Shown here: piece by piece, positions 1 to 49,881 of the stretch
Numbering within the stretch: position 1 is the first letter of the stretch
Layout: every line of letters starts with the position of its first letter
Virus record (IMG/VR): IMGVR_UViG_3300045988_139374
Span: 160,001-224,000 of that record
Strand: one strand, 5' to 3'
Length of the DNA: 64,000 bases
Source of the DNA: a virus
Made by a program: the position numbers and the translations under genes
The notes under the pieces: model-generated
The model's input: only the letters and a program-made list of their open reading frames with translations
What the model was told of the DNA's origin: nothing
Databases searched by the model: none

Positions 1-41
1 GTCCTATCAGAGAATTTTTAATCAAAAAGGAGTAGTCTATT

Positions 42-1250: not shown

Positions 1251-1285
1251 TATAATAAAGAAGGTAAATAATCTTTAATATAAAA

Positions 1286-1325
1286 GGAGTGGATTCCATT
1301 CGCCCACTCCTTTTATTTTTTTTTC
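1286..1325 (+). terminator. rho-independent terminator
   Basis: GGAGTGG 1286-1292 pairs with CCACTCC 1304-1310, followed by T-run. Confidence 0.7.
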
Positions 1326-1330
1326 AAAAA

Positions 1331-1344
1331 GTAGATTAAAATTC
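1331..1344 (+). promoter_or_regulatory. candidate phage promoter box GTAGATTAAAAT
   Basis: ATTAAAAT(A/T)C box recurs at 2622-2631, 6934-6943, 11683-11692, 48807-48816, each time just 3' of a terminator or gene end; here ~50 nt upstream of the fibre ATG. Confidence 0.3.
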
Positions 1345-1394
1345 AACTTCATAGTAATCCATATTGTGATAATGGTAGAATGGGGGTTAAAATA

Positions 1395-2218
1395 ATGGCT
1401 ACAATTAGGCAAATTAAAGTTAAAGATACATTGTATGATATTTCACCGTCTCCTAGTGGTACGCTTGATACCACTACTAAAGATAATGCATTTGCTTCTA
1501 GTGATGTTGCTCAAGCAAGTGCAACTTCTTGGACTGATGTAGCTGCTCTTGCTGCAACTGAAACTAACAAGAGCATGTTCACAAAAGCTACTCAGATGAT
1601 GAAAAATACCAGATACCTATATAATATTATTGGTACTGGTTTTAGTACTTCTAGTACTATTAAGAAAGCTATTGATGGAAAAGCAGCATCTAATCATAGT
1701 CATGATCTGAGTGCTATGATCAATGGACTTTCTGTTGGATCTGCTACTCCTCAAGATGCGGATTATTATGTGTGCCAATATGCGGGGGGGGGAACACCAC
1801 TTCCACATATCATAGAAGGCCGATGACTGCTCTTTGGGATTATATTAAGTCTAAAGGAAATAGTACTTGGCAACCTAAAGGAAGCTATGCTGCTGCAAAC
1901 CATAGTCACAATTATGCAGGATCTGGAAGTGCTGGTGGATCTGCAAATAGTGCAGTAAAGTTGGATACAGCAACTGCTGGTTCTACTACTCAACCTGTAT
2001 ACTTTAGTGGTGGTAAACCTGTAGCAATTGGATATACTATTGCTAAGAGCGTTCCTGCTGATGCTAATTTTAGTAATACTTGGCGTGGAATTCAGAATAA
2101 TCTTACTTCTACAGCAACAGATCAGTCCCTATCTGCTGCTCAGGGTAAAATTTTGAAAGATGCTCTTGATAAAAAGACTGGAGTTAGTGTATCTGGTACC
2201 ACTGTAGTATTTGGATAA
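1395..2218 (+). CDS. tail fibre protein with HxH motifs; reading frame broken at a G9 tract
   Basis: Track ORFs 1380..1826 and 1772..2218 overlap at G9 (1784-1792). The joined product reads ...YYVCQYAGGG|NTTSTYHRRP.... N-terminal ~110 aa are paralogous to 3172..4431 (FASSDVAQ, RYLYN, GTGFST, NHSH). ATG at 1395 follows GGGGG. Confidence 0.7.
1784..1792 (+). repeat. G9 homopolymer at the frame junction of the fibre gene
   Basis: Counted directly: gcGGGGGGGGGaacacc; +1 G or -2 G (or a -1 slip) fuses the two frames. Confidence 0.9.
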
Positions 2219-2234
2219 TAAATATTATAAATAA

Positions 2235-2276
2235 AATTCCCATAGGATTTTTATATCCTATGGGATTCTTTTATAA
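2235..2276 (+). terminator. rho-independent terminator after fibre gene
   Basis: AATTCCCATAGGA 2235-2247 pairs with TCCTATGGGATT 2256-2267, then CTTTTAT; identical copy at 11765-11806. Confidence 0.7.
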
Positions 2277-2570
2277 TCTGACGCTTCTATTAAGATCAAA
2301 ACAAAGTCTGGAAAATTTTCATATAGTAGCACTTACGGAAGAAATTATACATTTTATGATTATGAAGGAATATTTATTTCTGCATCAATTGACGGTATTG
2401 CATTTAACAATGATAATTATTTGTATAATTTGTATTATCCATCATTATATTCAATTCGTGTTAGTGATAAATATATTATTAAATCTTTCAATATTATAAG
2501 TTCTGATTCAGGAGGAAATAATATTTCTGGTATTGGAGATAATTTAAACATTATTATTTGCTATATTTAA
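2277..2570 (+). other. start-less fibre-tip-like cassette C1 (97 codons)
   Basis: Signal TGACGCTTCTATTAAG at 2279-2294. Frame TCT GAC GCT... gives SDASIKIKTKSGKF...NLNIIICYI-stop. TAA lies directly upstream in frame; no RBS or start codon. Confidence 0.6.
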
Positions 2571-2577
2571 AATTATT

Positions 2578-2612
2578 CAATAGAGAAATCTCTATTGGTT
2601 TTATTTTTTTTT
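2578..2612 (+). terminator. rho-independent terminator
   Basis: CAATAGAGA/TCTCTATTG palindrome 2578-2597 followed by T-run. Confidence 0.55.
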
Positions 2613-2634
2613 GTAGAATATATTAAAATACAAT

Positions 2635-3015
2635 AATCTGACGCTATTACGAAGTAGTCTGAGAAATCTGCCAAACCTCTATAAAAGGGCCTAAAATGGG
2701 CATTTTAAGAGGGTAAAATCGAGTGATTTTACACTTATTTTCAGTACTAAAAATTCAATTCAAGATAATAAATGTTTGATCAATAATCAATCTTAATTTA
2801 AAATATATAACAATATGGTAATGAAAGATGGTAGAAAAATCTTTTACCTTTAACAGCAGACACACAAACTATCTTTCATACATGAAGCATTCGATTTAAG
2901 ATTTATTGTGAAGACCGCTTTTAAGAGAGTCCCTTGGACTATAAACTGTGAAGACTTCGTTTAAGAAAATCAGATAAATCCATATCCAAGCCATTAAATG
3001 TAGTAGCGTCAGATT
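2635..3015. repeat. 16-bp inverted repeats (variant cassette signals) bounding a 349-bp non-coding segment
   Basis: AATCTGACGCTATTAC 2635-2650 versus the reverse complement of 3000-3015 (AATCTGACGCTACTAC): 15/16 match. Confidence 0.8.
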
Positions 3016-3065
3016 AAAATTGTGAAGCCTGCTTATATAGATTTTTGTGAAGACGACGGTTAAGA
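2882..3065 (+). repeat. five direct repeats of type GTGAAGAC-N5-TTAAGA
   Basis: R0 2882-2901, R1 2908-2926, R2 2948-2966, R3 3022-3041, R4 3047-3065; R1, R2 and R4 are each exactly 19 nt (GTGAAGAC N5 TTAAGA). Confidence 0.7.
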
Positions 3066-3073
3066 TTATTACT

Positions 3074-3111
3074 CGGTGTGGTCTTTATGATCACCCCGGA
3101 ATTTCTTTTTT
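3074..3111 (+). terminator. rho-independent terminator closing the non-coding module
   Basis: CGGTGTGGTC 3074-3083 pairs with GATCACCCCG 3089-3098 (9 of 10 positions), then a T-run. Confidence 0.5.
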
Positions 3112-3171
3112 AACAAAATATCACTATAAATAGCCCAAAATGGGTAATTTTAAGAAAGGAAATTTAATTTT

Positions 3172-4431
3172 ATGGCTATAATTGATAAAATTAAGGTTGG
3201 TAGCACTACCTATGATGTGTCGCCTTCTGCTTCTGGTACTCTGAACACTACTGGCACTACTAAGTTTGCTTCTAGTGACGTTGCTCAGGGAAATGCAACT
3301 GGCTGGACTAATGTAGATCAGATGACCACTGCTGATAACCATGCTACTCTGTTTACTAAGATCACTCAGATGGCAAAGAACGTCCGCTATCTGTACAATG
3401 TTCTTGGTACTGGCTTCTCCACTGGTTCTACTGTTAAGGGTCAGATTGATGGAAAAGCAGCAGCTAATCACTCTCACAAGGTTGCTCAACTGCCTACTTC
3501 TAGTACTCAAGTTAACTCCAATGACTATATTCCTACTTCTGCTCTGATCTATTCTATGAATCAGACTCTAACTTCGCTAAATGACGCTAGTAATAAACTT
3601 GGAGTCAGGATTTATAATACTAAATATGCAGTTGGAGGTATTCCTACCAAATCCCAATTTGCTGCAACTGACACTGTACAAAGCATTATTATTAAAATGC
3701 TAGGAGATATGGGTCAGAAACCCATTGACTCTTCTACACCTAATACAAGATATAAGTCTCAGAATCTTGGTACTTGGTCTAGTGTTAGTGATGTAGATAA
3801 TTTTCTTTATAGTTGTTGTCATGATACTGGTTATTATGGTGCTACTATTGGTAGTTATGTTACGATTAAAGATGGTGTATATAATAAAGAATGGATTATT
3901 GCTGGTTTTGATTGTGAAAAGAATCATAAAGCTTCCGATGGCAATACAAAGGATAATGGATATGGTATATGCTTAATACCTAAGAAGAGCTTAGGTAATT
4001 ATGTATGGGATTCTAATTCTATTATAAATGGATACAACGGATCTGAAATGCATAAGTCTACATTACCTGTAGTTGCGAATAATCTTAGAAAAGTATTAGG
4101 AAATCATCTTGTACAGCGTAATGTCCTTCTGAGTAATGCTGTAGATTCTAACTATTATGCTAAAGGCTATTTTTGGACTACTGCATATTGTACTCTTATG
4201 AGTACAGGACAAGTAACTGGTACATTTGCTTCTAATAGAAACAAGTATGATGATGGAGAAGCTAATTATAAACTTCCTTTGTTTAATTATGAAATATGGA
4301 GTTTTGATACCTGGGCCTGGTTGCGAGGGCTATTCGGCTACGGTGTCTATGGCCTTACCACTTCTGGTGGTTCTGGTTATGACATCTGTTACGTTAGTCA
4401 CGGTCTTCGCCCGCTCATTTATATTAGGTAA
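3172..4431 (+). CDS. DGR target: tail fibre / receptor-binding protein with C-terminal variable region
   Basis: 419-aa ORF. The N-terminus is paralogous to fibre 1395..2218 and includes NHSH. The C-terminus WAWLRGLFGYGVYGLTTSGGSGYDICYVSHGLRPLIYIR-stop resembles the CLec/FGE-type VR scaffold; the VR lies within the last ~115 nt of the ORF. Confidence 0.85.
   Translation: MAIIDKIKVGSTTYDVSPSASGTLNTTGTTKFASSDVAQGNATGWTNVDQMTTADNHATLFTKITQMAKNVRYLYNVLGTGFSTGSTVKGQIDGKAAANHSHKVAQLPTSSTQVNSNDYIPTSALIYSMNQTLTSLNDASNKLGVRIYNTKYAVGGIPTKSQFAATDTVQSIIIKMLGDMGQKPIDSSTPNTRYKSQNLGTWSSVSDVDNFLYSCCHDTGYYGATIGSYVTIKDGVYNKEWIIAGFDCEKNHKASDGNTKDNGYGICLIPKKSLGNYVWDSNSIINGYNGSEMHKSTLPVVANNLRKVLGNHLVQRNVLLSNAVDSNYYAKGYFWTTAYCTLMSTGQVTGTFASNRNKYDDGEANYKLPLFNYEIWSFDTWAWLRGLFGYGVYGLTTSGGSGYDICYVSHGLRPLIYIR
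4317..4417 (+). repeat. DGR variable region (VR)
   Basis: 101 nt align to TR with 12 mismatches, every one opposite a TR adenine. Confidence 0.9.
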
Positions 4432-4437
4432 TGGAAC

Positions 4438-4456
4438 TAGCCACCTTGTGTGGCTA
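4438..4456 (+). promoter_or_regulatory. hairpin just 3' of VR (candidate DGR homing-enhancing hairpin/cruciform)
   Basis: TAGCCAC 4438-4444 / loop CTTGT / GTGGCTA 4450-4456, about 20 nt after the VR end and 7 nt after the stop codon. Confidence 0.5.
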
Positions 4457-4537
4457 AGTGGAATTACCGTAATATAAATGAAAGGTGAAGGCTTAACGAG
4501 TAAATATATTATTAATATAAAATAAGAGGTGGTTTGT

Positions 4538-5347
4538 GTGTCTGTCGTTAAGGGTAAAAGAAATCAATCTGATGTTGAATATTTTGATTATGCATATAAA
4601 GTTGTGGAGCATATAACTAAATTTCTTTTATCTGATCTTGGGATTAAGAAAACTTATAGAGACTTAAAAGTTTTTACTTATAAATCTCATATGGAGGAAG
4701 CTGATAAAGAAGAATTTGAGCATTTAGTAAATAAGTATGATTTGGAATTGGAAACAGATTTTCCTAATTGGCTAATGTGCTATTATAGAGAAACATTATT
4801 AACAATCATGAGAGATCTAATCAATAATATATCTGCAGCTTATACACTATATCCAAATTCTGTTTATGAATTTAATATCAAGAAACAGTATATTTCTGAT
4901 TCTATAGCTAATTGTTTCGATTTAAAACATCAACTCCAATTAGTAATTAGAATATTTCCAGCAAATATGAAGAAATATATTCCATTTGTAAAAGAAATCG
5001 ATAAGGAAATAGAGCTTCTTAAACAGTGGCGAAAGAACTTTACAGGAATTTCTAAGAAGCATTGCTACAATCAAGATGAAATCGCTAAGAGAGATGCTAT
5101 TAAGAGAGTAAATAAGATTGAAGCAAAGAATGAGCGTAAACTTCAAGTGAACAATAATTTCCTTGTAGAATATATGAAAGCAGTTTACACTCAACAAGTG
5201 CTTATGGATAATCTATATCATACAACCTTCTATTATAATCAGCAAAATCAGTATTGCTCCGAACTGCCTATTGCAGCTTGTACATTCTTTGATCAAAATG
5301 GATATTATATTGGAGATTCTGCTCATGATTTTGTTACAACTAACTAA
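4538..5347 (+). CDS. candidate DGR accessory protein (Avd-like by position), otherwise hypothetical
   Basis: ORF lies between the target gene and TR. In-frame GTG at 4538 follows AAGAGGTGG. Predicted helical and basic. At ~270 aa it is longer than a typical Avd. Confidence 0.5.
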   Translation: MSVVKGKRNQSDVEYFDYAYKVVEHITKFLLSDLGIKKTYRDLKVFTYKSHMEEADKEEFEHLVNKYDLELETDFPNWLMCYYRETLLTIMRDLINNISAAYTLYPNSVYEFNIKKQYISDSIANCFDLKHQLQLVIRIFPANMKKYIPFVKEIDKEIELLKQWRKNFTGISKKHCYNQDEIAKRDAIKRVNKIEAKNERKLQVNNNFLVEYMKAVYTQQVLMDNLYHTTFYYNQQNQYCSELPIAACTFFDQNGYYIGDSAHDFVTTN

Positions 5348-5378
5348 ATAGTAAGGTGACTCTCTATAAATAATCTCG

Positions 5379-5497
5379 CTGGTTGCGAGGGCTATACGGC
5401 AACAACAACCTCAACAACAACAATGTCTATGGCCTTACCACTTCTGGTGGTTCTGATTATAACAACTGTAACAATAGTAACGGTCTTCGCCCGATCA
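5379..5497 (+). repeat. DGR template region (TR)
   Basis: 119 nt, AAC/AAT-rich (WLRGLYGNNNLNNNNVYGLTTSGGSDYNNCNNSNGLRPIN in the VR frame), intergenic between avd-like gene and RT. Confidence 0.9.
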
Positions 5498-5651
5498 ACA
5501 GCATCTTGGCAATTTAAGGATCGAAAGATCTGGCCAGGATGTCTGTATGAGGAGGGAGTTCCCTTTCCGAAAGGAAGAAACAATAAAGCTGGCTACGGTT
5601 CTGGCATTACGATGCTGAATCTATTGGGCTGGTATATTTTTTTTTATTTTT

Positions 5652-6938
5652 ATGATTATTGATTTTAGTAATGAAGATTGGGGCGAAAATCCCTGTGAAT
5701 ATACTGAAGGAAAATTAGATTCTATTGCAGATCCAGATAAATTATATCAATCTTATAGAAAAGCTTCTAAACCAATTTATTATAAAGCATCTACTCAAAG
5801 ATATGGATTAAATCTATTATCTAATATTGCTATTGCAAATGAAGCATTAAATAATGGATCTTATAAAATTGGAGATCCATATGAATTTATTCTCACAGAA
5901 CGCGGTAGAATTAGATATGTAAAAGCATTATATATGTTTGATCAAGTAGTGCAGAGATCTTTCAATGATAATGTATTAAATCCTGCTATTGCTAATAAGA
6001 TGATTTATGATAATGGAGCTTGTGTAAAAGGAAAAGGTGTTGCTTTTACAAGAATGAGATTTAAGCAGCATCTACAACAAGCATATTATCAATTTGGATA
6101 TGATGGTTATATAATGATCATCGATTTTTCTAAATATTTTGATAATATTCTTCATCAAGAAGCTTTAAAACAATTCGAACCTCTATTAACGCCAGAAGAA
6201 TACAATTTTCTTAAAATTACTTTTGATACATTCAAACTAGATGTATCTTATATGTCAGATGCAGAATATCTAGAAGCTAGAGATTCTCTGTTTAATCTTC
6301 TAGAATATTCTATGATGGCAAAAGAAAATTTCAAAGGATTAAAGCTTCTTGAAAAGTCTGTTGGAATTGGTAATCAAACTTCTCAAGGAACTGGAATGTA
6401 CTATCCTCATGAAATAGACAATTATGTGACTATAGTAAGAGGATATGGATTATATGGAAGGCATATGGATGATACATATGTATTTGCTAAAACTAAAGAA
6501 GAATTACAACAACTTCTTGAAGAAATAAAAGAATTGTGTAAGAATCTTGGAATTCATATTAATCTTAAGAAAACTAGAATAGAACCCATCAAGAATACAA
6601 TTTCATATCTTAAAATAAATTATAAAATTATTGAAACTGGAAGAGTATTTGAATTAGTCCCAAATAAAGTATTTAAAAGAGAAAAAGATAAATTAACAAA
6701 ATATAGGGATCTTTGCATTCAATATAAAATGACTGCTATTACAGTTCTTCAATGTTATCTTAGTTGGAGAGGTGTATATAATAAATTTGATTCTAAAAGA
6801 AAAATATATGCACTGGATTGCTATTTTAAAGATCTTTATTGTTTAGGATTTAGAGATACAAATCTATATGATTTGTTGCATTTCTATATGCGTGTAGAAA
6901 GAGAGAAATTAAATAACTATCCAGTCATGAAATATTAA
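5652..6938 (+). CDS. DGR reverse transcriptase
   Basis: IIDFSKYFDNI (motif A-like), VGIGNQTSQ (the DGR-typical [I/L]GNxxSQ), YGRHMDDTYVF (YxDD box). Confidence 0.9.
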   Translation: MIIDFSNEDWGENPCEYTEGKLDSIADPDKLYQSYRKASKPIYYKASTQRYGLNLLSNIAIANEALNNGSYKIGDPYEFILTERGRIRYVKALYMFDQVVQRSFNDNVLNPAIANKMIYDNGACVKGKGVAFTRMRFKQHLQQAYYQFGYDGYIMIIDFSKYFDNILHQEALKQFEPLLTPEEYNFLKITFDTFKLDVSYMSDAEYLEARDSLFNLLEYSMMAKENFKGLKLLEKSVGIGNQTSQGTGMYYPHEIDNYVTIVRGYGLYGRHMDDTYVFAKTKEELQQLLEEIKELCKNLGIHINLKKTRIEPIKNTISYLKINYKIIETGRVFELVPNKVFKREKDKLTKYRDLCIQYKMTAITVLQCYLSWRGVYNKFDSKRKIYALDCYFKDLYCLGFRDTNLYDLLHFYMRVEREKLNNYPVMKY

Positions 6939-6943
6939 AATAC

Positions 6944-6980
6944 TAGGTAAGGAATTTATTTCCTTACCTATTTTATTTTT
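6944..6980 (+). terminator. rho-independent terminator
   Basis: TAGGTAAGGAA 6944-6954 pairs with TTCCTTACCTA 6960-6970, followed by T-run. Confidence 0.7.
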
Positions 6981-7026
6981 AATTTTTTATTTGACAATTA
7001 ATTACTAAATTTAAGGAGGCTTATAT

Positions 7027-7617
7027 ATGTCCGACAAACGTACTGATTACATTTCTAAAGATCAAATGTATATGGGAATTGCTCAACTTGCTGCAATGAG
7101 ATCTAAAGATCCTAATTCTCAAGTTGGTGCAGTTTTTGTATCTTCTAATGATCGTATCCTTAGCATTGGTTATAATGGATTTCCTAATGGAATTTCTGAT
7201 GATGAATTCCCTTGGGCAAGAGAAGCTGAATCTGAAGAGAATACTAAATATCCTTATGTAGTTCATGCAGAAGAAAATGCTATTCTTAACTTCCGTGGAG
7301 ACCTTTCTGCTTTTAAAGGCTCTACTCTTTACGTAACAATGTTTCCTTGCCATAACTGTACGAAGGCTCTTATTCAAGTTGGCGTTAAGCATATTTATTA
7401 TGGTATTAATAAATATCCTGATACGGCAGATTTTAGAGAAGCTACTAGAATGCTTGATGCTGTTGGAATCAAGTATGAACAACTGGTCAATGATATGATT
7501 ATTATATCAACAAAAGATTTTATTGATGCTTTTAATAATCTATCAGATAAATCAAGAGATTTAACAGATCTAACAGGGTTTGTTGATAGGATGAATTTTC
7601 CTGAGTATTATAAATAA
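7027..7617 (+). CDS. dCMP deaminase (cytidine/deoxycytidylate deaminase fold)
   Basis: VVHAEENAI and MFPCHNCTKALIQVG (HAE...PCxxC zinc motifs); AAGGAGG RBS. Confidence 0.8.
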   Translation: MSDKRTDYISKDQMYMGIAQLAAMRSKDPNSQVGAVFVSSNDRILSIGYNGFPNGISDDEFPWAREAESEENTKYPYVVHAEENAILNFRGDLSAFKGSTLYVTMFPCHNCTKALIQVGVKHIYYGINKYPDTADFREATRMLDAVGIKYEQLVNDMIIISTKDFIDAFNNLSDKSRDLTDLTGFVDRMNFPEYYK

Positions 7618-7747
7618 TTCTTAAAATTTCTTTTGAGGATATATTATAATATTGATAGAAAGGAGTGGTAATATGATTAGGCCACCGTAACAATAGTATT
7701 CTTAAATCTCCAAAAGTATAAAATCACTAAGGAGGATAATTTCAAAC

Positions 7748-9463
7748 ATGGAAAACAATAATGTCAATCTATCTAAATATGGATATCAAGAGCAAAGATA
7801 TCCTATTGATACTACTGGCTATAAGCAACTTCATGACTATAACATCGAGTATCAGATGGCACATCAGAAGGAGTTTAACTTCCTTCAGCCTCTTCCTAAT
7901 GATCTTATGTCTACTACTAAGACATATCCTCATTCTGATGAGTTTGAGTTTTCTGGACAGCTTGAAATCATTAATTATGATAAAGCTTGTGAAGAAGACC
8001 TTAGGGAAGGAAATGGTTTTATTGTAGAACCAGCTGGTAGAAATATCAAGAAAGATCTTCATGCTGAGGATGGTATTTTCTCTCCTAAGTTTGGACAAAC
8101 CTTGGCTGATACTAATCCTTTTATGGATCGTTATCGTTGTCGGTGTAAAGAAGGAGGGCTTCGTGGCCGTAATAATGCCGGTTTGCGTTGTCCAAAATGT
8201 GGTCATCTATGTTCTTATGTAGATGATAATTTTAATTATCGTGGATGGATTAAACTTTCTGAGCCTTATAAGTTTATTCATCCTACCTTCTACACTTATA
8301 TCGATTCTATCCTTGGTAAAGGTATCTATATCCAGGGTAATAAGCGTACTAAGCTTGAAAATATTCTTGACGTTACTGATACTCAATTGGTTCTTAATTC
8401 TATTAAGATTGATGATCCCAAACTTAAAGATGAACCGTTCTTTGGTATTGGAATGATTGCTTTTGTCGAACGCTTTGATGAGATCATGGATTATTATATC
8501 AAGAAGCGCCCTAATAAGCGTAATTATTATGATGCCATTTATCAGTCTCGTGATTCTGTATTTTCATCTTCGCTTCCTGTCATCACTACATTGCTTCGTC
8601 CGTTCGATATAGATGGCAACAACATGACCTATGAGCCAACGAATGCAATGTATACAATGATTAATAAACTTGCTACTTCTATTAATAAGAATAAAACTGC
8701 TATCCAGAGAGAACCTAAAATCAAGAACCAGCAGCTTTATAATCTTCAAAAGAAGTTTATGGAAATTTATGCTGAACAAATTTCTATTCTAGCAGGTAAG
8801 AAGGGAGATTTTAGATGTCTACTTGGTGGACGTTATAACTTCTCTTCTCGTTGTGTTATTGTTCAAAATCCTAATCTTCGTATTGATGAGATTACTATGC
8901 CTGCTGTAGCATTGACTGTTATGCTTGAGCAAAGAATTAAAAATATTCTCTGCCGTATGCATGGTATGACTCCTACACAAGCACATGATATTTGGTATAA
9001 AGCTACTATTGAGCCTAATAAACGTATAAATACCATTATTCAATCCATCATCGATGATTTTAAACACAAAGGCATGCGTGGGCTTCCGGTTATCATTGGA
9101 CGAAATCCTACACTTGCTTATGGCTCTATTCTGCAAATGTTCTGTGTTGGGATTACTGATTCTTATACCTTAGCAGTTCCTCTACAGATCTTAAAATTCT
9201 TGGCTGCTGACTTCGACGGCGACGTTATATATTGCTTGGTTCCGATGAATCAGACTTTTATTCGTCTTGCTTGGGAAAAATTCAATCCTAGGAATGCTAT
9301 GTATATTTCTAGAGATAATGGATATTTCAATCCCAATGCATTGATGCAAAGAGATACACTTATTAATGCTAATACTTTAGCAAGATTAGGAAGGGAGAAT
9401 TACACACAAGAAGATCTTAATAAGTTCGATAGAATTCAGAAAGCTATTAAAGCAGCTGGTTAA
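7748..9463 (+). CDS. multisubunit RNA polymerase beta-prime-like subunit, N-terminal fragment
   Basis: CRCKEGGLRGRNNAGLRCPKCGH (CxC...CxxC zinc ribbon); GRNPTLAYGSILQM (compare NRAPTLHRLGIQAF); LAADFDGDVIY (catalytic DFDGD at 9209-9223); only 571 aa, so a split beta-prime. Confidence 0.8.
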   Translation: MENNNVNLSKYGYQEQRYPIDTTGYKQLHDYNIEYQMAHQKEFNFLQPLPNDLMSTTKTYPHSDEFEFSGQLEIINYDKACEEDLREGNGFIVEPAGRNIKKDLHAEDGIFSPKFGQTLADTNPFMDRYRCRCKEGGLRGRNNAGLRCPKCGHLCSYVDDNFNYRGWIKLSEPYKFIHPTFYTYIDSILGKGIYIQGNKRTKLENILDVTDTQLVLNSIKIDDPKLKDEPFFGIGMIAFVERFDEIMDYYIKKRPNKRNYYDAIYQSRDSVFSSSLPVITTLLRPFDIDGNNMTYEPTNAMYTMINKLATSINKNKTAIQREPKIKNQQLYNLQKKFMEIYAEQISILAGKKGDFRCLLGGRYNFSSRCVIVQNPNLRIDEITMPAVALTVMLEQRIKNILCRMHGMTPTQAHDIWYKATIEPNKRINTIIQSIIDDFKHKGMRGLPVIIGRNPTLAYGSILQMFCVGITDSYTLAVPLQILKFLAADFDGDVIYCLVPMNQTFIRLAWEKFNPRNAMYISRDNGYFNPNALMQRDTLINANTLARLGRENYTQEDLNKFDRIQKAIKAAG

Positions 9464-9590
9464 TGCTAAATGCGCAATAGTAGTAGCCAGCATTTCTGAA
9501 TGAATGCTATACTCTATCATTGATATTATCAGTATATAGGCAGTACTGATGATATAAGTCAATCTCCTATTTTATAAATCTCTTAAAGAG

Positions 9591-9635
9591 GGCCGGTAGA
9601 GATTTGATTCTCTACCGGCTTTTCTTTTTTTTTTA
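9591..9635. terminator. rho-independent terminator
   Basis: CCGGTAGAG 9593-9601 pairs with CTCTACCGG 9610-9618, followed by a long T-run. Confidence 0.75.
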
Positions 9636-9641
9636 TTTATT

Positions 9642-9875
9642 TTAGATATAAAATATTCTTACATTATATTTTACTATAGAAATAAGTTGTTTATTTAGAT
9701 CGATATTAAATGTAACGATTACATAATTTAAATAATCAGGGACGTAATATATGGCAACATATGGAAATCCAGAGATTGAATTTATGTCTGCACATATTGC
9801 AGATATTACAATTATATTGTTAAATGATTTCATTTCTGAAATATACATATCTCTTTGCTTAATAGAAGCGTCATT
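9642..9875 (-). other. start-less cassette C4 (77 codons), last of the minus-strand array
   Basis: Signal at 9858-9873 (rev); NDASIKQRDMYISEM...VRIFYI-stop. Confidence 0.55.
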
Positions 9876-10168
9876 TACATATCAAAATACCAACATTTGC
9901 ATGTAATAGGATTTTTACCATCGGTATATATTTCATTATCTGCAAGCCTTCCGACTTTTGTCATATAAACTTCACAGTTAGTAACTTTAAATGTACCATC
10001 ATCAAAATATCCACTGGCAGCTATTACAGGAAATGTATAATATCCAGCATTTCCTTTTGGATATAGTATTGGCATTGCTTGAATTATATATGCTTTAGAT
10101 AAGTACCCGCATGATGCATATTCACTATATGGAACTTTACAAGTATTAGTTTTAAGAGAAGCGTCATT
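9875..10168 (-). other. start-less cassette C5 (97 codons)
   Basis: Signal at 10151-10166 (rev, TGACGCTTCTCTTAAA); NDASLKTNTCKV...KCWYFDM-stop. Confidence 0.55.
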
Positions 10169-10496
10169 GTGCTTTACCTTTAATATAAAATATATTAATG
10201 ATGACTTCTGCATTTGATAAAGATGTTTTGTTAAAAGGCATAATTTTTTCATGCAATGTATCAATACCTAGTATATATAATTTTCTGCCAGTTGTCCAAA
10301 TACCAGTATTTGGATCTTGTGTTGAATCGATACTTGTAGATAGGAAAGTTAAATACATTCTAACAGTATTACTACAATATGCATAGTGAGCTATAATATC
10401 ATCATCAGTAACAGAAATATCTGTATCAAGAATAAAATAAGAAATATCATTCTTTACTCTACCTTGCTTCATTTTAATTTTAGTAGAAGCGTCATT
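10164..10496 (-). other. start-less cassette C6 (110 codons)
   Basis: Signal at 10479-10494 (rev); NDASTKIKMKQGRV...INIFYIKGKAQ; the stop is the TGA inside the next signal. Confidence 0.55.
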
Positions 10497-10506
10497 TATA
10501 TTGGTA

Positions 10507-10767
10507 TTATAGATTTTTTAAATAAAATACAATTAATCTTCTAATAGATGAATGCATTGTTAAAGTATTATTAGGGAATCCTCTTATATCTATATAATAA
10601 CATGAATCATCTTCATCATACCATATATCTACATATTCAGCTTGCTCAGTTTTACCTGTTATTTTAGATTCAATATAAAGTCCAACAATTGGAATTCCTA
10701 AATAAAAAGCTTGTTTACTACTTTTTGGAAGAGTTAATTCTATATTATATATAATAGAAGCGTCATT
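10507..10767 (-). other. start-less cassette C7 (86 codons)
   Basis: Signal at 10750-10765 (rev); NDASIIYNIELT...LIVFYLKNL-stop. Confidence 0.55.
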
Positions 10768-11065
10768 TACCAAAATAATAATATATTTTTATATTAAATG
10801 CTGTATTTACTTTTATTAATTTATAATCATTAATTTCAAACAATTGAATTATAGAATAAAAACTACCCTTTTCATATATTCCTTGATACATTGCTGGAAA
10901 TATATACTTAGGAGAATAATTGATAGGAAATAATGTTTGATTATACGTGGTACTATACACAGCAAATATTATATATGCTGATAGCCCAGATGGCACATCA
11001 TATCTTTCTTTATATATTCCATTCTCATCAGTTGTTACATCTTTACTCTTAATAGAAGCGTCATT
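10763..11065 (-). other. start-less cassette C8 (100 codons)
   Basis: Signal at 11048-11063 (rev); NDASIKSKDVTT...IKIYYYFGK; the stop is the TGA inside the next signal. Confidence 0.55.
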
Positions 11066-11384
11066 CACTAATATAATAGTATATTTTAATACCAATTTTA
11101 TCTGATGGCTTTATAAGCTGTCCATTGTCATTTATTTTATATACTTGAATTACAATATATCTATTAACAGCATCTGCAATTTTTCCATATGAGCCAGAAT
11201 ATATTGCAGGAATTATATATATTGGAACATTCATTTGATTTACTAGATTTCCAGTCATTGTGGATGTATTACTATATATCGCTAAAATATTTTTATGAGA
11301 ACTAATTCCAAATACGCCTAATGCAATTTTATATTCTCCACTGCTATCAGTTTCCACTATTTCATGTTTAATAGAAGCGTCAGA
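11061..11384 (-). other. start-less cassette C9 (107 codons)
   Basis: Signal at 11367-11382 (rev); SDASIKHEIVET...IKIYYYISE; the stop is the TGA inside the next signal. Confidence 0.55.
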
Positions 11385-11388
11385 CTTG

Positions 11389-11673
11389 TTAAATATAATA
11401 TATAATAATTGAAACATTACGTCCATTACGAGATGCCGTGCTGCCATTAATATCTGATGTATATACAAGAATAGTTCTAATTACCCATTCAACATCTGTA
11501 GTTTTAAATATTTGAATTAATGGAATAGATGAACTGGTATTTACAGCTGGATTTATGTATGCATTTATTAAAATTCCATTAGTAAATTTATATAAGTAAT
11601 CATTGTCATTTAAACCATTTGAATATTTTCTAGGATATACGGTATCAGTTTTAATCTTAATAGAAGCGTCAAA
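11389..11673 (-). other. start-less cassette C10 (94 codons), first of the minus-strand array
   Basis: Signal at 11656-11671 (rev); FDASIKIKTDTVYPRK...VSIIIYYI-stop; no ATG/GTG/TTG in frame, so it is absent from the ORF track. Confidence 0.55.
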
Positions 11674-11704
11674 TTATTAGATATTAAAATACTAGGTAAG
11701 GAAT

Positions 11705-11748
11705 CTACTAATGTTACAGTCGATGGTACCACTATAGTATTTGGATAA
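11705..11748 (+). pseudogene. orphan 3' end of a tail-fibre paralog
   Basis: Encodes ...TNVTVDGTTIVFG-stop (compare ...GVSVSGTTVVFG-stop of 1395..2218); 11725-11806 matches 2195-2276 with 1 mismatch; no upstream ORF. Confidence 0.55.
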
Positions 11749-11764
11749 TAAATATTATAAATAA

Positions 11765-11806
11765 AATTCCCATAGGATTTTTATATCCTATGGGATTCTT
11801 TTATAG
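11765..11806 (+). terminator. duplicate of the fibre-gene terminator
   Basis: Same hairpin as at 2235-2267. Confidence 0.6.
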
Positions 11807-11814
11807 TCTTATAA

Positions 11815-12393
11815 TCTGACGCTACTAAGAATTTTGGAAATGGAAGTCTAATTAAATCTATTACTTATGAAGGATCCTATACTACAAGTACTGTTTATTC
11901 ATATCAAATCGATGATTGGCTAAAAGTAAATTGTACTTCTACTAATCCTATTAGAACAAAAATATCTAGATTATATGATATTGTATTTTTCTTCGATACA
12001 GATGTTGAGGAGTTAGCTATAAATATGCTTAGACATTTATTTGCTGTTGGAGCTGACTATAAGTATCTTGGTGGATTTATACTCATGAAGAAAATATCAA
12101 ATGAATGGACACCTGGTAGATCTCTTTCTCAGGCTAGCTTTGATTATTTTTTAGGCCCATATATAGAATATGGATTGGCACCTAAACAATTTGTTAAATA
12201 TCGAGTAATTAGAGAGAATAATGCATATTATATAGATAGATATGTTGATACATCAGAGAAAAACTACAAAAATGATAATATTTCCTATCAGATATTATAT
12301 AGGAATACAGAACCGCATAAATATTTAATATATGGAATAGATTTTGAAGATCATGTATCTGATGTTGTGAATAGTAAGCCAGTAGATCAGTAA
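11815..12393 (+). other. start-less large cassette C11 (192 codons)
   Basis: Variant signal TGACGCTACTAAGAAT at 11817-11832; SDATKNFGNGSLIKSITYEG... is homologous to C17; TAA directly upstream in frame. Confidence 0.55.
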
Positions 12394-12404
12394 ATATAGT
12401 ATAC

Positions 12405-12679
12405 AATGACACTTCTAAAATAAAAACAATATACATGGATTAGGTAATGTAAAAACAACAACTAGGTATATAGATAATCAATATGGTAGTTATTATGAAA
12501 AATGCTATTATCTAGCTTCTGGAATTATGGTTGGGTATATGCTTGATCAAAGTACAATAGGATTATTATCTACATTCTTAACACAAGTAGGTAAATATAT
12601 AATGGCATTTAGATATGATAACACTGCAAAATCAATGAATACGATAGAGTGCACTATATCTATGCTTTATTATATTTAA
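12405..12679 (+). pseudogene. degenerate, frameshifted cassette C11b
   Basis: Variant signal TGACACTTCT at 12407; the head frame stops after 12 codons; another frame carries ...ECTISMLYYI-stop; length 275 nt is not a multiple of 3. Confidence 0.45.
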
Positions 12680-14672: not shown

Positions 14673-17600
14673 ATGGCTAAGTCTAAAAACAAAGACAACA
14701 ATAAAACTGGCCCTATTGCATATGCCAAAAATGTAGTAAAGTCTGCTAAGTATATTGCTGTTGAGACTGCCAAGGGTGTTAATCCTACACTTACTAGCTA
14801 TATTGCTGATAATGCTTCTGCTGCAAAGGATATGTACAATGCAGCGAAGGATTATAAAGGAACTATTCGTAAGAAGCTAGAAGACTCTATTGGATCTAAA
14901 AATACCGATCAACTTGGACAAATTAAGAAAGATATTTTTAGTGATCTAAAATCTGGTAAATTCTACAATCCTGAACGTGAAGCAGAGTCCATGAACAAAC
15001 TAGCAGAATCTTGGGGAATGACTTCCTTTGATTTTGATATGGATGATGATTTCGATCTAGATTCTGATAATGATGACGATACTGATAGCTCTACTACATC
15101 TTCTAAATCTAATGATATAGATGTAGTTACTGGAGCTATCCATGGTCTTGGAAATCAGATTTCTTATCACCAGCTTATTACTGGTGAGGGAATTGCTGGT
15201 AAGATCGGTGGAGCTAATATCAAGAATACTAGAGCAATGATGACAAATAATAATAGACTCGCTGGAATGTTGAATAATTCCTTGTCTGTTATTAATACTT
15301 CTATTCTTGATCTTCATAAGGATCTAGTAGAACCTCTCAATGGACACATTCAGAATTCTACTAGTTTTTATCAAACAGCTACATCTGAGCTGGCTAAGCA
15401 AACTAGTTATTTGGAGACTATCACTAAACTACTAACAGATAGATTTGCTCCCGTTGCCACTAGTAAAGGTAGTGGAATTAAAGAGACTCCTTGGGAAGCA
15501 GTTATGGGTGGAGATTTGCCGAATCTAGGTAACTGGATTAAGCATGCCAAGAATAAATCAATGGAAGATTCTGGAATGGACTCCCTTGCTGCTATTATGA
15601 ATCCTGAGATGCTGGAGACTTTACTAGGTGCTGGTATGCATTCTCCTATTGCATTGGCAATTACTATGGCTCTTACATCTAAGATTCAAAATGGCCCTAC
15701 CGGTAAAGCTCTAGATAGAACTGTCAATATTTTTAGAGATGGTATGATGAAGGTCGCTGGACAGATTCATAAAGCATCTAAGAATGATGGTATTCTAGGT
15801 ACCATTGCTAGTTTCTTTGACATTACTCCTCATTTTAATCCTAAGATGAATTTCGGTAATTATAATAAGGGACGAGTAGATTGGACTGGTAAGGACTCTA
15901 AAGCACTGAGAGATGTTATTCCTACTTATCTAGCAAATATTGAAGCTTTGCTATCTGGCAGAGAAGCTAAAGTATTTAACTATGAAACTGGTAGATTTAC
16001 ATCTGCAAGTAATGGCTTTAATGAATTTAAGAAATCTAGACAGGCTAATATCGGTAATGCTTCTAAGGGTATGAAGGAAGAACTTCTTCAAGAATTTATC
16101 GATGAAGATAAAGAGAAGTATAAGAATGATGAAAACCATATTGCTTATACTAGAGAATCTAGAGCTGTTAGAAATCTATCTGATGATTATGATAAGATGA
16201 TGTCTCTTATTACTCTAAATCATATTGATCCTTCTAAATTTGATTCTGCTCAGAGTATGCTTACTCTTCTTCGTCAAAGAGGATGGATTAATGATGATCC
16301 TACTAAGGGATTCATTTCTAACAAGAATGCTCGTGCTATTGCTAGACTTATTTTCAAGAAAAAGTCTGGTGTTGGTAAAATGAATAATGCTATCTATTCT
16401 GGACAGATTGCAAATGCTAGATTTGTTGATACTATCAATGAAACTAATCCTATGTTTGCTGCAGTGGCAAATGGATCTGGTATGACTAATACTCACAAAC
16501 TAAAAAGCAATCTAAATAAGAATAGTGCAGATGCTGTTACTATGGCACTTGATGATCATGGTAATAATATTTTCTTCTATCTGCAAGATTATTATAAGCA
16601 AATTAGAGTTATGGTAGACTCTATGTCTGCATCTAACTTTAATTTGTCTACTATCAAGAATGAAATTATTAGTAGATTTAATGGAGGATTTGGTAATACA
16701 GAAAACTCCACTGGAACTTCTGGTAATAGACGCCAGCCTAAGAAGAGAAAAGAATCTTCTAGAGCAAGTAGAGCAGCTGCTGCAGATGCTGGAGCTGGCG
16801 GCTCAGACTCTGGATTTAGATCTCTATATAATTTCAATTACGACGTTCCTAACAATATAGCTCCTGAGATTATTACTCCTGAAATGGCCGAAGCTTCTGC
16901 TGGAGCTTCGGAGAGAGAAGCTGCAATTGAAGATCCTGAAGGAAGAATGGTATATAATTCCTCTACTAAGCGATATGAAGCTCCTAAGGCTTCTTCTAGA
17001 GGATCTTTCCTAAAGTTTAAGGAAAATGCTAAAGATCATAGTATCCTATCTATCATCGTTGATAAATTCAATGATTTTATGGATAATACGCTCTTCGGTA
17101 ATGCGCCTGCTGCATTTAAGCAGAAGATTGACGAAGAAGGTGGTCTGTTCGGATACCTGCAATCTTTGCCCAATAAGATTGCTACAGGTCTACAGGATCT
17201 TCCTGATAAAATTGCAAATAAAACTAGTGAATTATGGAAGAAGTTCCAGGAATCTGATTTTGGCAAGAAATTCATGGAATCTTCTAAGAATATTATTTCT
17301 AGTTTCTTTAAAGATACAGAACAATATGCTGAAAGAAAAGCTCAGGGTACTTTAAAGTATCTATTTAAGAATACTAGATTTGATCTCGATAAGAAAGAAA
17401 AAGAAAACGAAGAGGCAATTAATGGACCTATTGCTCTATTACCTCAACATGCTGAATCTTTAATTCCTGAAGATGCTAATCCTGAAGGATCTTATAGAGG
17501 TGGATTAGTTAATAAATCTGGAATGGTTTCTGTTTCTAAAGGTGAATTGATTGTTCCTGCAAAATATAATCCTCTTTATAATGGTGGATTGTCTGATAAA

Positions 17601-45648: not shown

Positions 45649-45879
45649 CTACAATACATACCTTCTAATGAGATACATCCATTTTTTCTGAACAGCATAA
45701 AATAATGTAGCATTCAAATTATTATAATCTCTAGCATATTCAAAATCAAAATCATATCCAATCATAGTTCCATCTATTTTATATGCATGGCCAGAGTCAT
45801 AGACACTACTACAATCATGAACTTTAGATGTATAAACATTAGTTATTTTCTTTATAGAATTATTATTAGAAGCGTCAGA
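45649..45879 (-). other. start-less cassette C12 (76 codons)
   Basis: Signal at 45862-45877 (rev, TGACGCTTCTAATAAT); SDASNNNSIKKITNVYTSK... Confidence 0.5.
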
Positions 45880-45883
45880 CTTA

Positions 45884-46117
45884 TTAAATATAGATGATGT
45901 TTGCATGACATGAAGTATTACCAGATAATGATGAACCATCGGAATAGTGATCCATATCTACGAATCTACAATATAATTTTCCATTATTTTGATAAATATA
46001 GTCTATATCACTGTATTTAATACGATCTAATATATCAAATCCTATCAATGTACCATTTAATGTATATCCATCTTTAGTAATATAAATATTACTAAGCTTT
46101 TTTATAGAAGCGTCATT
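45884..46117 (-). other. start-less cassette C13 (77 codons)
   Basis: Signal at 46100-46115 (rev); NDASIKKLSNIYITKDG...CHANIIYI-stop-stop. Confidence 0.55.
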
Positions 46118-46152
46118 AGTATTTTAAAAAGTATTTATTTTCACTTGTATAG

Positions 46153-46191: not shown

Positions 46192-46240
46192 TATGTATTA
46201 GCAAAAAAACAAATATAGTGTACTTATAGGAGGTACAATT

Positions 46241-46567: not shown

Positions 46568-46572
46568 AGCAA

Positions 46573-46616: not shown

Positions 46617-46621
46617 AATGA

Positions 46622-46879
46622 TTTGACGCTTCTATTAAGAGTACTGTAATCACAACACCTAGTGATTATTCATCTGTAGATTTTAAGCTTGGAATTCCAG
46701 TAGGCGTATTTCCATATTCATCTAGAGATATAAGCGTATATCAATTGTATGAAGTATATTATAGATATTATGATTCTACCATTATATCATTTGGAATTAG
46801 AAGTATTAATATTAAAAATAATGGAAATATAGAGTATTGTATAGGTCAGCAAATTTTAGTGTATTATATTCCAATTTGA
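46622..46879 (+). other. start-less cassette C14 (85 codons)
   Basis: Signal at 46624-46639; FDASIKSTVITTPSDY...QQILVYYIPI-stop; converges on and overlaps C15. Confidence 0.55.
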
Positions 46880-47119
46880 AATATAAAAAATATTTAAAGT
46901 TAACCCTGCAATTCTTTTAAATTTAGTAAAATCATCACCAATAGCTTGACCAACGACTATTACATAATTATCGTTATTATTTTTATATTGCATTATAAAT
47001 TGGAATCCTTCGCTTAAATCATTATTACCAATAATAGTATTAATTAAAATTTTATCTAGTGATATTGTATATCCATTTATAGAACTAATAGCTGTCATCA
47101 TTTTAATAGAAGCGTCAGA
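46856..47119 (-). other. start-less cassette C15 (87 codons)
   Basis: Signal at 47102-47117 (rev); SDASIKMMTAISSINGY...LNIFYISNWNIIH-stop. Confidence 0.55.
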
Positions 47120-48821: not shown

Positions 48822-49115
48822 TCTGACGCTTCTATTAAGTACATAGATATTTCATTACATCTAAAGAGTAGTATATCATATGAACATAACATATCATCAA
48901 ATCCTATTATATCTATTATAGGAGTTTTTACAAATATTAGTAATTGTATTCCAATACTTAATAATCTATCTTTTGAAGAAAAAATTGATTCTAATGATAA
49001 CTTAGTCGAATTCCAAGTAATTGACTATAATTTATATACTATAAGTAGTGGAAAATTAATATTAACAAAAGTATCTGGATATGTTACTATATTTTATATT
49101 GAACCTTCCAATTAA
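48822..49115 (+). other. start-less cassette C16 (97 codons)
   Basis: Signal at 48824-48839, directly after the promoter-like box; SDASIKYIDISLHLK...YVTIFYIEPSN-stop. Confidence 0.55.
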
Positions 49116-49119
49116 ATAA

Positions 49120-49626
49120 TCTGACGCTTCTAAGAATTTTGGAAATGGAAGTTTTATTAAATCCATTACTTATGAAGGATATTATACAATTAGTGATAAA
49201 TATATAAACCATATGAGTTCAGATACTTGTATTAGAACTACTGTATCTAAAATGTATGATGTTGTGTTATTCGCTGAATTAGAAACTACAAACAATACTT
49301 TATTAGCTGAGCAAAATCCATATGTTAAAGTATTTCAAAATATTATCAAAGGTTCATTTGCTGGATATGTATTTATGAATTTAATGCCTACATCTTGGAA
49401 GATTTTATATAATAATACTTCTAGCAATGATTTTATTGGGCCATATGTTGAATATGATCATTGTCCTACAAGTGGTGTAGTAGCTAGAAGAAATAGATTA
49501 TCCATAGAAAGATACTGTGCAAAGTATACTAACAATATGGATTATCAATTATTAGCTAGACAAGGCATTAGATATGATGTATATGGTCTAATGCTTAGAG
49601 ATGAAATTGCTAATCTATTTAGATAA
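49120..49626 (+). other. start-less large cassette C17 (168 codons)
   Basis: Signal at 49122-49137; SDASKNFGNGSFIKSITYEG... is homologous to C11. Confidence 0.55.
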
Positions 49627-49627
49627 G

Positions 49628-49881
49628 TATGACGCTTCTATCAAGCGAACTGTTGTTACTCTTAAATATAATAATACCGAAGTAGGATGTAAATTTACAT
49701 TAGGAGCTCCAGTTGGAGGATATATACTTACAGAAATTAATAGCTGGATTGTAATACGTATGGATAAAAATATGAATATTCTATATTTGGAATTTATGTT
49801 CGTACTTGGTTAGGTGACGGATTAATTGAAAAAATTCAATATATAGATAATTATTATAAAGCTACTATATTTTACATTTAA
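49628..49881 (+). pseudogene. frameshifted cassette C18
   Basis: Signal at 49630-49645; YDASIKRTVVTL... stops at TAG 49811-49813, while ...YYKATIFYI-stop lies in another frame; one extra A in the A5 run at ~49766-49770 would fuse them. Confidence 0.5.

Follow-up and report, generated by a model that had tools for sequence, protein, structure and literature searches.

Seven start-less cassettes in a head-to-tail array

In a viral DNA stretch of 64,000 nt (positions 160,001 to 224,000 of the IMG/VR virus record IMGVR_UViG_3300045988_139374; hereafter the window), seven abutting units of one divergent protein family lie on the minus strand at positions 9642-11673. Here we describe these units, cassettes C10 to C4, the short fibre protein to which their relatives are joined in other genomes, and a recombination system that may switch them. 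Each cassette is an open reading frame (ORF) of 76-109 codons, headed by the signal TGACGCTTCTATTAAG or by a variant whose first 15 bases contain no more than one mismatch. The T of TGACGC in the seven signals lies at 11671, 11382, 11063, 10765, 10494, 10166 and 9873, which gives spacings of 289, 319, 298, 271, 328 and 293 nt. The head-to-tail packing that an earlier reading of the sequence alone (the original prediction) had described is therefore borne out, with spacings of 271-328 nt. In the frame GAC GCT TCT ATT AAG the signal encodes DASIK, and it opens the ORF in every unit. All seven heads lack an ATG, GTG or TTG and a Shine-Dalgarno (SD) sequence, whereas ordinary genes nearby have strong GGAGG sites.

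The array starts with C10 (11389..11673), a 93-codon start-less ORF (DASIKIKTDTV...IIIYYI) that ends on its own TAA. C9 (11061..11384; signal 11382) has 106 codons (DASIKHEIVETD...IYYYISE) and its stop is the TGA of the next signal (11063-11061). C8 (10763..11065; signal 11063; 99 codons) and C6 (10164..10496; signal 10494; 109 codons) also terminate on the TGA of the signal that follows, and all three ORFs read as had been predicted. The other units are C7 (10507..10767; signal 10765; 85 codons, DASIIYNIELT...VFYLKNL), C5 (9875..10168; signal 10166; 96 codons, DASLKTNTCKV...CWYFDM) and C4 (9642..9875; signal 9873; 76 codons), which is the last unit and is followed by a hairpin terminator at ~9592-9619. 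In the TGA frame, the signal consensus (TGA CGC TTC TAT TAA) holds a second stop three codons after the first, again as foreseen. Most units end in a hydrophobic I/V-x-I-(Y/F)-Y-I strand, and this C-terminal strand is conserved across the family. The DNA around the cassettes is only ~27% G+C; cassette ORFs of 75-190 codons are nonetheless open.

Cassettes at four loci of the window

The signal has 24 matches at ≤3 mismatches in the window, compared with 3.4 expected from shuffled sequence, and none of 100 shuffles reached 24. In total there are 16 cassettes, a decayed copy (12405) and a cassette that is the target of a diversity-generating retroelement (DGR; 3582). The 16 cassettes are spread over four loci on both strands (2279, 9642-12393, 45649-47119 and 48824-49813), and the arrays are mainly direct repeats. 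Those outside the seven-unit array are, like it, silent in the sense developed below. One of 96 codons (2279..2570, +) lies downstream of tail-fibre gene 1 (fibre 1) and the fibre-1 terminator. Beside the array, a long cassette of 191 codons (11817..12393, +; DATKNFGNGS...) is related to the tip of the fused protein P0094 and follows a duplicate of the 3′ end of fibre 1 and its terminator (11713-11809). Next to it stands the decayed cassette (12405..12679, +), in which the signal has changed to TGACACTTCTAAAATAA and a stop comes early but the rest still ends ...ISMLYYI; its intact homologue is found in the related genome L030 at 8250 (-), and a related tip is fused in P0010. The third locus has two cassettes at 45649..46117 (-; signals 46115 and 45877), one of 84 codons that follows a terminator (46624..46879, +) and one of 86 codons (46856..47119, -; signal 47117), of which P0003 is a near-identical copy. 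Three cassettes make up the fourth locus (48824..49813, +; signals 48824, 49122 and 49630), the middle one having 167 codons and belonging to the NFGNGS type.

Start-less cassette ORFs are missed or mis-started by gene callers, which place their starts at internal ATGs and report proteins of 50-135 aa. The frame of cassette 47117 is open for 106 codons further upstream (46856-47413, -), antisense to a well-formed gene at 47147-47800, and we take this as chance. The segment at 11713-11809 is a 93% copy of 2183-2279 (the last 36 nt of fibre gene 1, its terminator and the signal flank); lying back to back with the seven-cassette array, it is probably the scar of an earlier exchange at a signal. 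The end of contig L049, 4 nt before signal 2279, was considered as population heterogeneity and is explained by this 97-nt repeat (2183-2279 / 11713-11809).

Constraint on the signal and phase of the junctions

Codon usage was compared in 76 unique cassettes from the window and its relatives, which were defined by peptide and ORF length rather than by a DNA motif. The Asp codon of the signal is GAC in 76/76 cassettes against 9% in cassette interiors, the Ala codon is GCT throughout (52% in interiors), and the Ser codon is mostly TCT (36% in interiors). Among 64 unique sites, picked on TGACGCT alone, right-arm positions 10 (T), 14 (A) and 15 (A) show little or no variation. At the other end, 49 of the 76 cassettes have a C-terminal [YFW]Y[IVL] motif, in which Tyr is TAT in 47/49 cases, compared with 91% in interiors, and Ile codons are mixed. 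As these codons follow ordinary usage, the 3′ motif is a conserved protein strand and not a DNA signal. The original prediction had placed a nucleotide-level boundary on both sides of each unit. The 5′ side holds, with fixed synonymous positions and breakpoints at the signal (see below). The 3′ side, a boundary at TATTATATT, is not supported: apart from the protein strand and a preference for AT-rich codons the sequence there shows no constraint, and none of the breakpoints maps to it.

At 8/10 junctions in the window a cassette is in frame with the TGA of the signal that follows it, and the same holds at 24/34 non-identical junctions when relatives are included (binomial P = 1e-5, an optimistic value because the junctions are partly homologous). 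The phase bias, previously put at 9 of 13 junctions, is thus real. Across the 34 junctions, the gap from stop to next signal is mostly -3, 0, 3, 6 or 12 nt; eight cassettes stop on the TGA of the next signal, and most others stop 0, 3, 6 or 12 nt before it. Most simply, the +1 phase is a way to guarantee termination rather than a form of translational coupling.

Relatives of the cassettes are fused to a constant N-terminal domain

The fusion partner of the cassettes lies outside the array. ORF 3172-4431 (+) consists of a constant 137-aa N-terminal domain of a short fibre (N-domain; 3172..3581), which forms the expression site, and a 282-aa C-terminal domain (3582..4431), with the signal in frame between them (…LTSLN DASNK…, nt 3582). 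The C-terminal domain, headed by the signal variant TGACGCTAGTAATAA, is the cassette now in the expression site and is diversified by the DGR. When the N-domain was used as a query, 80 proteins matched, from many metagenomes and on contigs of up to 277 kb. In ~70 of these 80, with lengths of 205-307 aa, the N-domain is 75-97% identical up to …MNQTLTSLN and is followed by DAS(I/T/L)K and then by differing small domains, which form ~31 unrelated types at 40% identity. The related phage genomes that carry such fused proteins are ~240-280 kb in size. The peptide MNQTLTSLNDA is retained even in N-domains that are only ~50% identical.

Several tips of these fused proteins are relatives of window cassettes. 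Cassette 2279 is 73% identical to the tip of P0009, cassette 49122 66% to that of P0094, cassette 46115 60-64% to those of P0018, P0057 and P0063, and cassette 47117 55% to that of P0044; within the array, identities are 44% for C5 (P0028 and P0016), 38% for C10 (P0043) and 36% for C6 (P0007). Since the N-domain is fused to their relatives, the window cassettes are silent copies of alternative C-terminal domains. In agreement, clustering at 90% identity places the same cassette in two states in different genomes, fused in P0094 and silent in P0092/P0093, and fused in P0023 and silent in P0087/P0090; the silent copies are called from an internal Met. An AlphaFold model of one fused protein has a helix up to the junction and then a confident small beta domain (predicted local distance difference test, about 90), with the N-terminal part of the monomer poorly modelled.

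The DGR is canonical (3172-6938), with a template repeat (TR) at 5379-5497, a variable repeat (VR) at 4317-4417, in the 3′ end of ORF 3172-4431, a 272-aa accessory-like ORF at 4529-5347 and a reverse transcriptase at 5652-6938; TR/VR mismatches fall at TR adenines in 9/9 cases. A contig from a sister sample (L048) ends at the start of the VR, as expected for a hypervariable stretch. For C4-C10 no template repeat was found, and hence the DGR does not explain the cassettes. The reverse transcriptase was also considered as a cassette mover or part of a group II intron and was rejected, being a standard DGR enzyme with its own TR and VR.

Two further observations concern related genomes. In L037, a cassette homologue (9057-9464; MFNGS DASVEIGTCK...) has its own ATG four codons upstream and GAT in place of GAC; its recombination core is lost, so that it resembles a cassette that has become a gene in its own right. 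Genes for 135-aa proteins that adjoin arrays in the relatives showed no relation to one another.

The N-domain is part of a movable module with a dif-like site

The N-domain lies at the end of a movable expression module of 943 bp (2639..3581, +), which begins TGACGC-TATTACGAAGT, continues with a 530-nt non-coding leader and ends with the N-domain ORF (...ACTTCGCTAAA). The module is 93-96% identical in L037, L040 and L041 and ~75-78% identical in L042, and in each of these five genomes, counting the window, it stands at a different signal. In the window it precedes the DGR cassette, and in L037 and L040 two different cassettes of the locus after the DHFR gene. In L041 it lies at the locus equivalent to window 48.8-49.8 kb, where it gives the fused P0094, and in L042 before the dCMP deaminase gene. 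It stands far from any DGR in L037, L040 and L041. L030-L032 have an exact empty site, with the left flank joined through TGACGC to the cassette arm. Left module junctions read variable sequence, TGACGC, TATTACGAAGT…, and right junctions …ACTTCGCTAAA, TGACGC, cassette arm. Together, the junctions and the empty site place the exchange inside a 6-7-bp core.

The site formed by the module ends, ACTTCGCTAAA-TGACGC-TATTACGAAGT, is conserved in six sequences. Its inverted arms match at 8/11 positions around a 6-bp centre, which is the architecture of Xer/dif-type sites (two ~11-bp inverted arms and a centre of 6-8 bp), and a further CAGACT inverted pair lies outside the arms. The last codons of the N-domain, AAT CAG ACT CTA ACT TCG CTA AAT, double as the left arm. 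That this arm is coding sequence for …NQTLTSLN fits the invariance of the peptide.

A joined form of the module was also found. L038 is a 1085-bp megahit contig (k=141) with an exact 141-nt terminal overlap, leaving a unique path of 944 bp, and it joins the end of the N-domain to the module start. This closed path could be either a circle or tandem copies. Together with many short contigs that carry fused genes, L038 hints indirectly at coexisting isoforms in one population. A second contig, L050 (ERZ27271590, 1374 bp), has a Zn-ribbon ORF and, immediately downstream, an N-domain gene whose N-terminus resembles that of fibre 1; its N-domain is followed by TGACGC and the module's right arm, coding DAITK-stop, a 'tip-less' state. 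The fibre-1-like N-terminus indicates that N-domains are themselves mosaic.

Within the leader, an inverted copy of the core (aatcTGACGCTACTAC; 2995..3017, -; T at 3011) is kept in the modules of L038, L040, L041 and L042. The leader folds better than shuffled sequences (z = -3.7), largely via inverted core copies, and a search of it against Rfam gave nothing credible. On either side of the core copy at 3011, within 2903-3065, lie four direct repeats of TGTGAAGAC-N6-TTAAGA, which could bind protein as accessory or arm-type sites. Positions 2840-2879 are an 83% inverted copy of 4522-4561, the ribosome-binding site (RBS) and first codons of the DGR accessory-like ORF, and could be an antisense regulator or a relic of the module's origin. 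A leader-like element, GCC(T/C)AAAATGGG(C/T)A(A)TTTTAAGA(G/A)(G/A)G, occurs at 2687-2713 and 3132-3159; the latter copy supplies the RBS region of the N-domain and the former precedes only an 18-codon ORF.

Related genomes differ at the signals

Close relatives (L030-L036) were recovered via cassette proteins. L030-L036 share a synteny of fibre, DGR, dCMP deaminase, RNA polymerase beta′, cassette array, tRNAs and a protein of 3.4 thousand aa, and they differ in the number, order and strand of their cassettes. A C9 homologue occurs in L036 with a different array order, and P0001 in the same genome is a copy of C8 that is 95% identical. P0002 is the C7 cassette, but has different DNA in front in L030-L035, and P0004 is near-identical to C6.

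All homology breakpoints between these related genomes are on signals. The most precise case is an indel of two cassettes: L032 lacks exactly L030 17384-18119, between two direct signals, with a flank that is 100% identical and an overlap equal to the 17-nt signal. L031 diverges from L030 from a signal onward, and the comparison of window 3582 with L030 17066 breaks at the core. The domain targeted by the DGR is, in L030-L032, one more cassette with no start codon, and …TAA TC-TGACGCTAGTAATAAG stands before it. The genomes differ in the DNA lost or gained between direct sites, in cassette order and in the place of the module, and no clear inversion isomer was present among the assemblies of the compared relatives. 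The original prediction had called the units swappable modules; they are found silent or fused to the N-domain in different genomes, and the two-cassette indel between 100%-identical flanks points the same way.

Reference phages are more remote. A blastn search ('distant') of 9400-12500 against phage reference genomes gave no match, and relatives among the references are only distant, via RNA polymerase (phiR1-37, AR9 and PBS1, at 23-29% identity). The exact 16-mer of the signal had 29 single, chance-like hits in IMG/VR and no related contig.

A Xer-like recombinase gene adjoins the window

Scans with Pfam, PHROGs and NCBIfam detected no recombinase among the ~45 ORFs of the window. A look-up of window ORF 42-1250 led to L046, a contig from human gut sample ERR414328 (PRJEB5224) that is 99.94% identical to window 1-11251. 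L046 encodes a 329-aa Xer-like tyrosine recombinase, whose gene (L046 8937-9926) stops 34 nt short of window position 1 and lies about 1.4 kb from fibre 1. Similarly, L042 encodes a 325-aa tyrosine recombinase 4.6 kb upstream of the module, and its neighbour is a homologue of window ORF 42-1250. The recombinase gene lies downstream of gyrB/gyrA, is conserved in relatives of 258-283 kb and is common in ~271-kb contigs. From its sequence and position, this Xer-like enzyme most likely catalyses exchange of cassettes and module.

Proposed switching mechanism and alternatives

We propose that a ~270-kb gut phage keeps the cassettes as silent alternatives for the C-terminal domain of one short fibre protein and switches them by means of a recombinase, and give this reading a probability of roughly three in four. 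In the proposed mechanism, each cassette head would be a recombination half-site, made of the 6-bp core TGACGC and a right arm T-N-N-T-A-N-N-A-A-(G/A), that is read in frame as D-A-S-I-K. A cassette would be expressed only when joined at the core to the constant 137-aa N-domain, whose last codons would form the left arm of the dif-like site. The constant part would travel with its own leader and RBS as the 943-944-bp module, leaving one signal as a circle or tandem intermediate and entering another on either strand. The enzyme is predicted to be the Xer-like tyrosine recombinase encoded just upstream of the window. As the module would move and not the cassette loci, essential genes between the loci would stay unrearranged. 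Recombination between cassette signals would also delete, insert or reorder cassettes. The 3′ neighbour of every cassette is a signal with a TGA, backed by a TAA, so that termination would be secured whichever unit follows, and this explains the phase bias. From their context the tips may determine host recognition in a receptor-binding role, in which case switching probably changes which bacteria the phage attaches to, and it may occur at appreciable frequency within populations.

A bolder version, which we put at slightly less than an even chance, is a 'reverse integron'. Here the Xer-like recombinase would hop a 944-bp minicircle, carrying the leader, the N-terminal half and the dif-like site, among dozens of silent tips, one of them DGR-diversified, that are dispersed over a ~270-kb genome of lytic type, giving bursts of mixed-tip phage; MNQTLTSLNDA would then be fixed as the DNA of a recombinase-binding arm.

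Several results weigh against recombinase-driven tip switching. The evidence for rearrangement is throughout a comparison of assemblies from different samples. L050 has the junction of N-domain and module start in a linear context, and L038 may thus be tandem or 'parked'. The cassette sites consist of the core and right arm only, which makes Xer-type dimer binding hard to picture. The recombinase was assigned by adjacency, family and site architecture; its scores (XerA 209, XerC 195 and XerD 185 bits) are below the curated cut-off of every Xer model, so that it is Xer-like and not an orthologue. Fibre 1 (1380-2218) has its own stops and a terminator before signal 2279, and signals with no upstream coding partner thus exist. 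Finally, a Foldseek search of the fused-protein model against the PDB found no significant match for the tip (best E = 0.076). Among its weak matches (E = 0.2-4) were resistin and lactococcal phage receptor-binding proteins, with TP901-1 and p2 at ~1-4; the lactococcal proteins have a helical neck and a small beta head.

The first of these points is shared by a model in which no dedicated recombinase acts and tips change by homologous or microhomology recombination, or by gene conversion between co-infecting phages, as slow mosaicism; silent pilS or vls cassettes are the precedent for such recombinase-free exchange. Right-hand breakpoints of replaced blocks that are not at signals, and N-domains that are mosaic at their own N-termini, would also suit it. 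However, TGACGCTA is all that the module and the DGR cassette have in common at the crossover, and exchange driven by homology would need more. Such exchange would also leave aside the inverted-repeat module site with a Xer-like recombinase gene adjacent to it, the closed or tandem module junction, the signal-to-signal deletion with a 100%-identical flank and the synonymous sites that are fixed over 16 nt in very divergent cassettes, and we consider it improbable. Still less probable, and in our view very unlikely, is an origin of the units as ordinary small paralogues or as decaying leftovers of fibre swaps, the 'signal' being simply the coding sequence of a shared N-terminal peptide. A single divergent family with a conserved C-terminal strand, one decayed copy and the L037 homologue with an ATG of its own and no GAC codon are what this would produce, but start codons and SDs are missing from all cassettes although the phage has strong SDs elsewhere, reading frames of 75-190 codons are uninterrupted at ~27% G+C, the codon choice of the signal is fixed against local bias, and fused versions exist.

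A translational origin of the junctions is barely credible. By this account, programmed +1 frameshifting or termination-reinitiation at the signal UGA, of the RF2/antizyme type, would chain cassettes or couple them to an upstream ORF. The in-frame TGA at 24/34 junctions, with the next cassette in +1, has the right geometry, and UGA-C is a weak stop context. Programmed +1 frameshifting goes with a fixed shift-prone codon and a stimulator, but the junctions have no slippery codon or upstream SD stimulator, and the codon before the TGA varies (AAA, GAA, CAA, ATC, GTC or ATT). Many cassettes have their own stop 0-12 nt earlier, terminators, or stops in every frame, lie upstream of the first cassette of an array, and many genomes carry genes that are fused at the DNA level.

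If fibre tips are indeed switched by recombination, the consequences reach beyond this phage. The known ways in which phages alter host recognition are small inversion switches, which offer two to about six alternatives, and point mutagenesis by DGRs. Tip switching as proposed would be variation on a third scale, with tens of ready-made and highly divergent tips stored per genome; the promoter and anchor half would move rather than the cassettes, combined with a DGR in the same protein. It would help to explain how uncultured jumbo gut phages track diverse hosts, and it would draw attention to start-less ORFs as a class that gene calling overlooks or starts wrongly. It would also offer a natural design for engineered swaps of receptor-binding domains, with a 28-bp site, one recombinase and a 137-aa anchor.

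Comparison with described systems

In a literature search we found no description of such a system, the nearest being the Rin shufflon of Bifidobacterium prophages. Rin has a constant 168-aa Rc N-terminus and start-less Rv segments of 95-100 aa that are 6-30% identical; an 11-bp asymmetric rix site precedes each segment, and the gene for an arm-less XerD-like recombinase is adjacent (Mavrich et al. 2018, PMC6109161). Its 3-5 segments form one compact cluster that inverts, with the constant part fixed in place (PMC6109161). The common logic is a phage-encoded constant N-terminus of a fibre or receptor-binding protein (137 aa here) with start-less C-terminal segments, a short in-frame site before each segment and probably the class of enzyme, a tyrosine recombinase encoded beside the locus. 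Cassettes here are 60-109 aa with a few longer ones, compared with the 95-100 aa of Rv. Unlike Rin, there are at least 16 cassettes in 64 kb, at four loci, on both strands and mostly as direct repeats. The genomes differ by insertions, deletions and reordering, a 944-bp constant unit stands at different signals and has a closed junction, one cassette is also a DGR target, and the phage is of ~270 kb with an RNA polymerase of the AR9/phiR1-37 type. As in shufflons generally, a constant 5′ part and start-less 3′ segments are joined by a crossover site that is in frame at both edges; inversion within one contiguous cluster, the shufflon mode of switching, was not seen among the assemblies compared.

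Other switches share parts of this organisation. Min (p15B), Gin (Mu) and Cin (P1) join alternative 3′ parts of tail-fibre genes to a constant 5′ part at crossover sites within coding sequence, as here. These are serine invertases with an enhancer and act by inversion within one segment only; in contrast, the cassettes described here probably depend on a tyrosine recombinase and a dif-like site, and the differences between genomes are by excision, integration and deletion. Relative to Rin and Min, the new elements are the dispersed direct-repeat arrays, the mobile expression module and a DGR-diversified cassette in the repertoire. In the R64 shufflon, the Rci tyrosine recombinase acts at asymmetric sfx sites, in which the core and one arm are conserved, on C-terminal segments of the PilV pilus adhesin, and only on inverted sites in one cluster. 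Core and one-arm sites likewise join a constant N-terminal part to alternative C-terminal segments here, but the product is a phage fibre, not a pilus adhesin, and the expression module is mobile.

The arrays also resemble integrons in their promoter-less cassettes, probable Xer-related tyrosine recombinase and single place of expression. Integron cassettes are complete genes with a folded attC at the 3′ end and move to a fixed promoter, whereas here they are fragments with an in-frame 5′ site, to which the promoter and N-terminal part would move. The recombinase scores 100 bits against an integron-integrase cut-off of 265, and the cassettes are 5′-truncated; the system is therefore no integron. 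In Mycoplasma pulmonis, vsa has one expression site (promoter and 5′ end), a short in-frame site and silent genes that lack the 5′ end, and switches by inversions. That is a surface lipoprotein system of a bacterium, and differs from the present one in that the expression module here relocates; we know of no relocating module in vsa.

Other features of the window

Tail-fibre gene 1 (1380-2218) is split into two overlapping ORFs by a run of nine G at 1784-1792. The run has 8 G in the ENA assembly of the same sequencing run (L046), and 7 or 10 G would restore one ORF; it could be a phase-variable or slippage tract, a case of transcriptional slippage or a homopolymer assembly error. We also considered a T4 gene 60-type bypass from the GGA-TAA end of fibre 1 across the hairpin, and rejected it as the cassette frame has no matching landing codon. 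An S74 intramolecular-chaperone cleavage motif (S-D-x-x-x-K) for SDASIK was set aside, since the Ser is not conserved (N, S or F before D) and there was no Pfam hit. A hairpin terminator repeat at 1269-1324 and 48749-48795, GGAGTGGG..CCCACTCC followed by AAAAAGTAGATTAAAAT(A/T)CAA, recurs in L037 and L040. It stands in front of fibre 1, the module and a cassette array and may serve the phage as a promoter or terminator. At the gathering threshold, Rfam detected only two tRNAs in the window. Beyond the seven-cassette array, positions 14673-24971 hold a single ORF of 3432 aa. Homologues in the relatives have Peptidase_C39-like, CHAP and phage lysozyme domains, and its product is probably a giant virion-associated protein that degrades cell walls.

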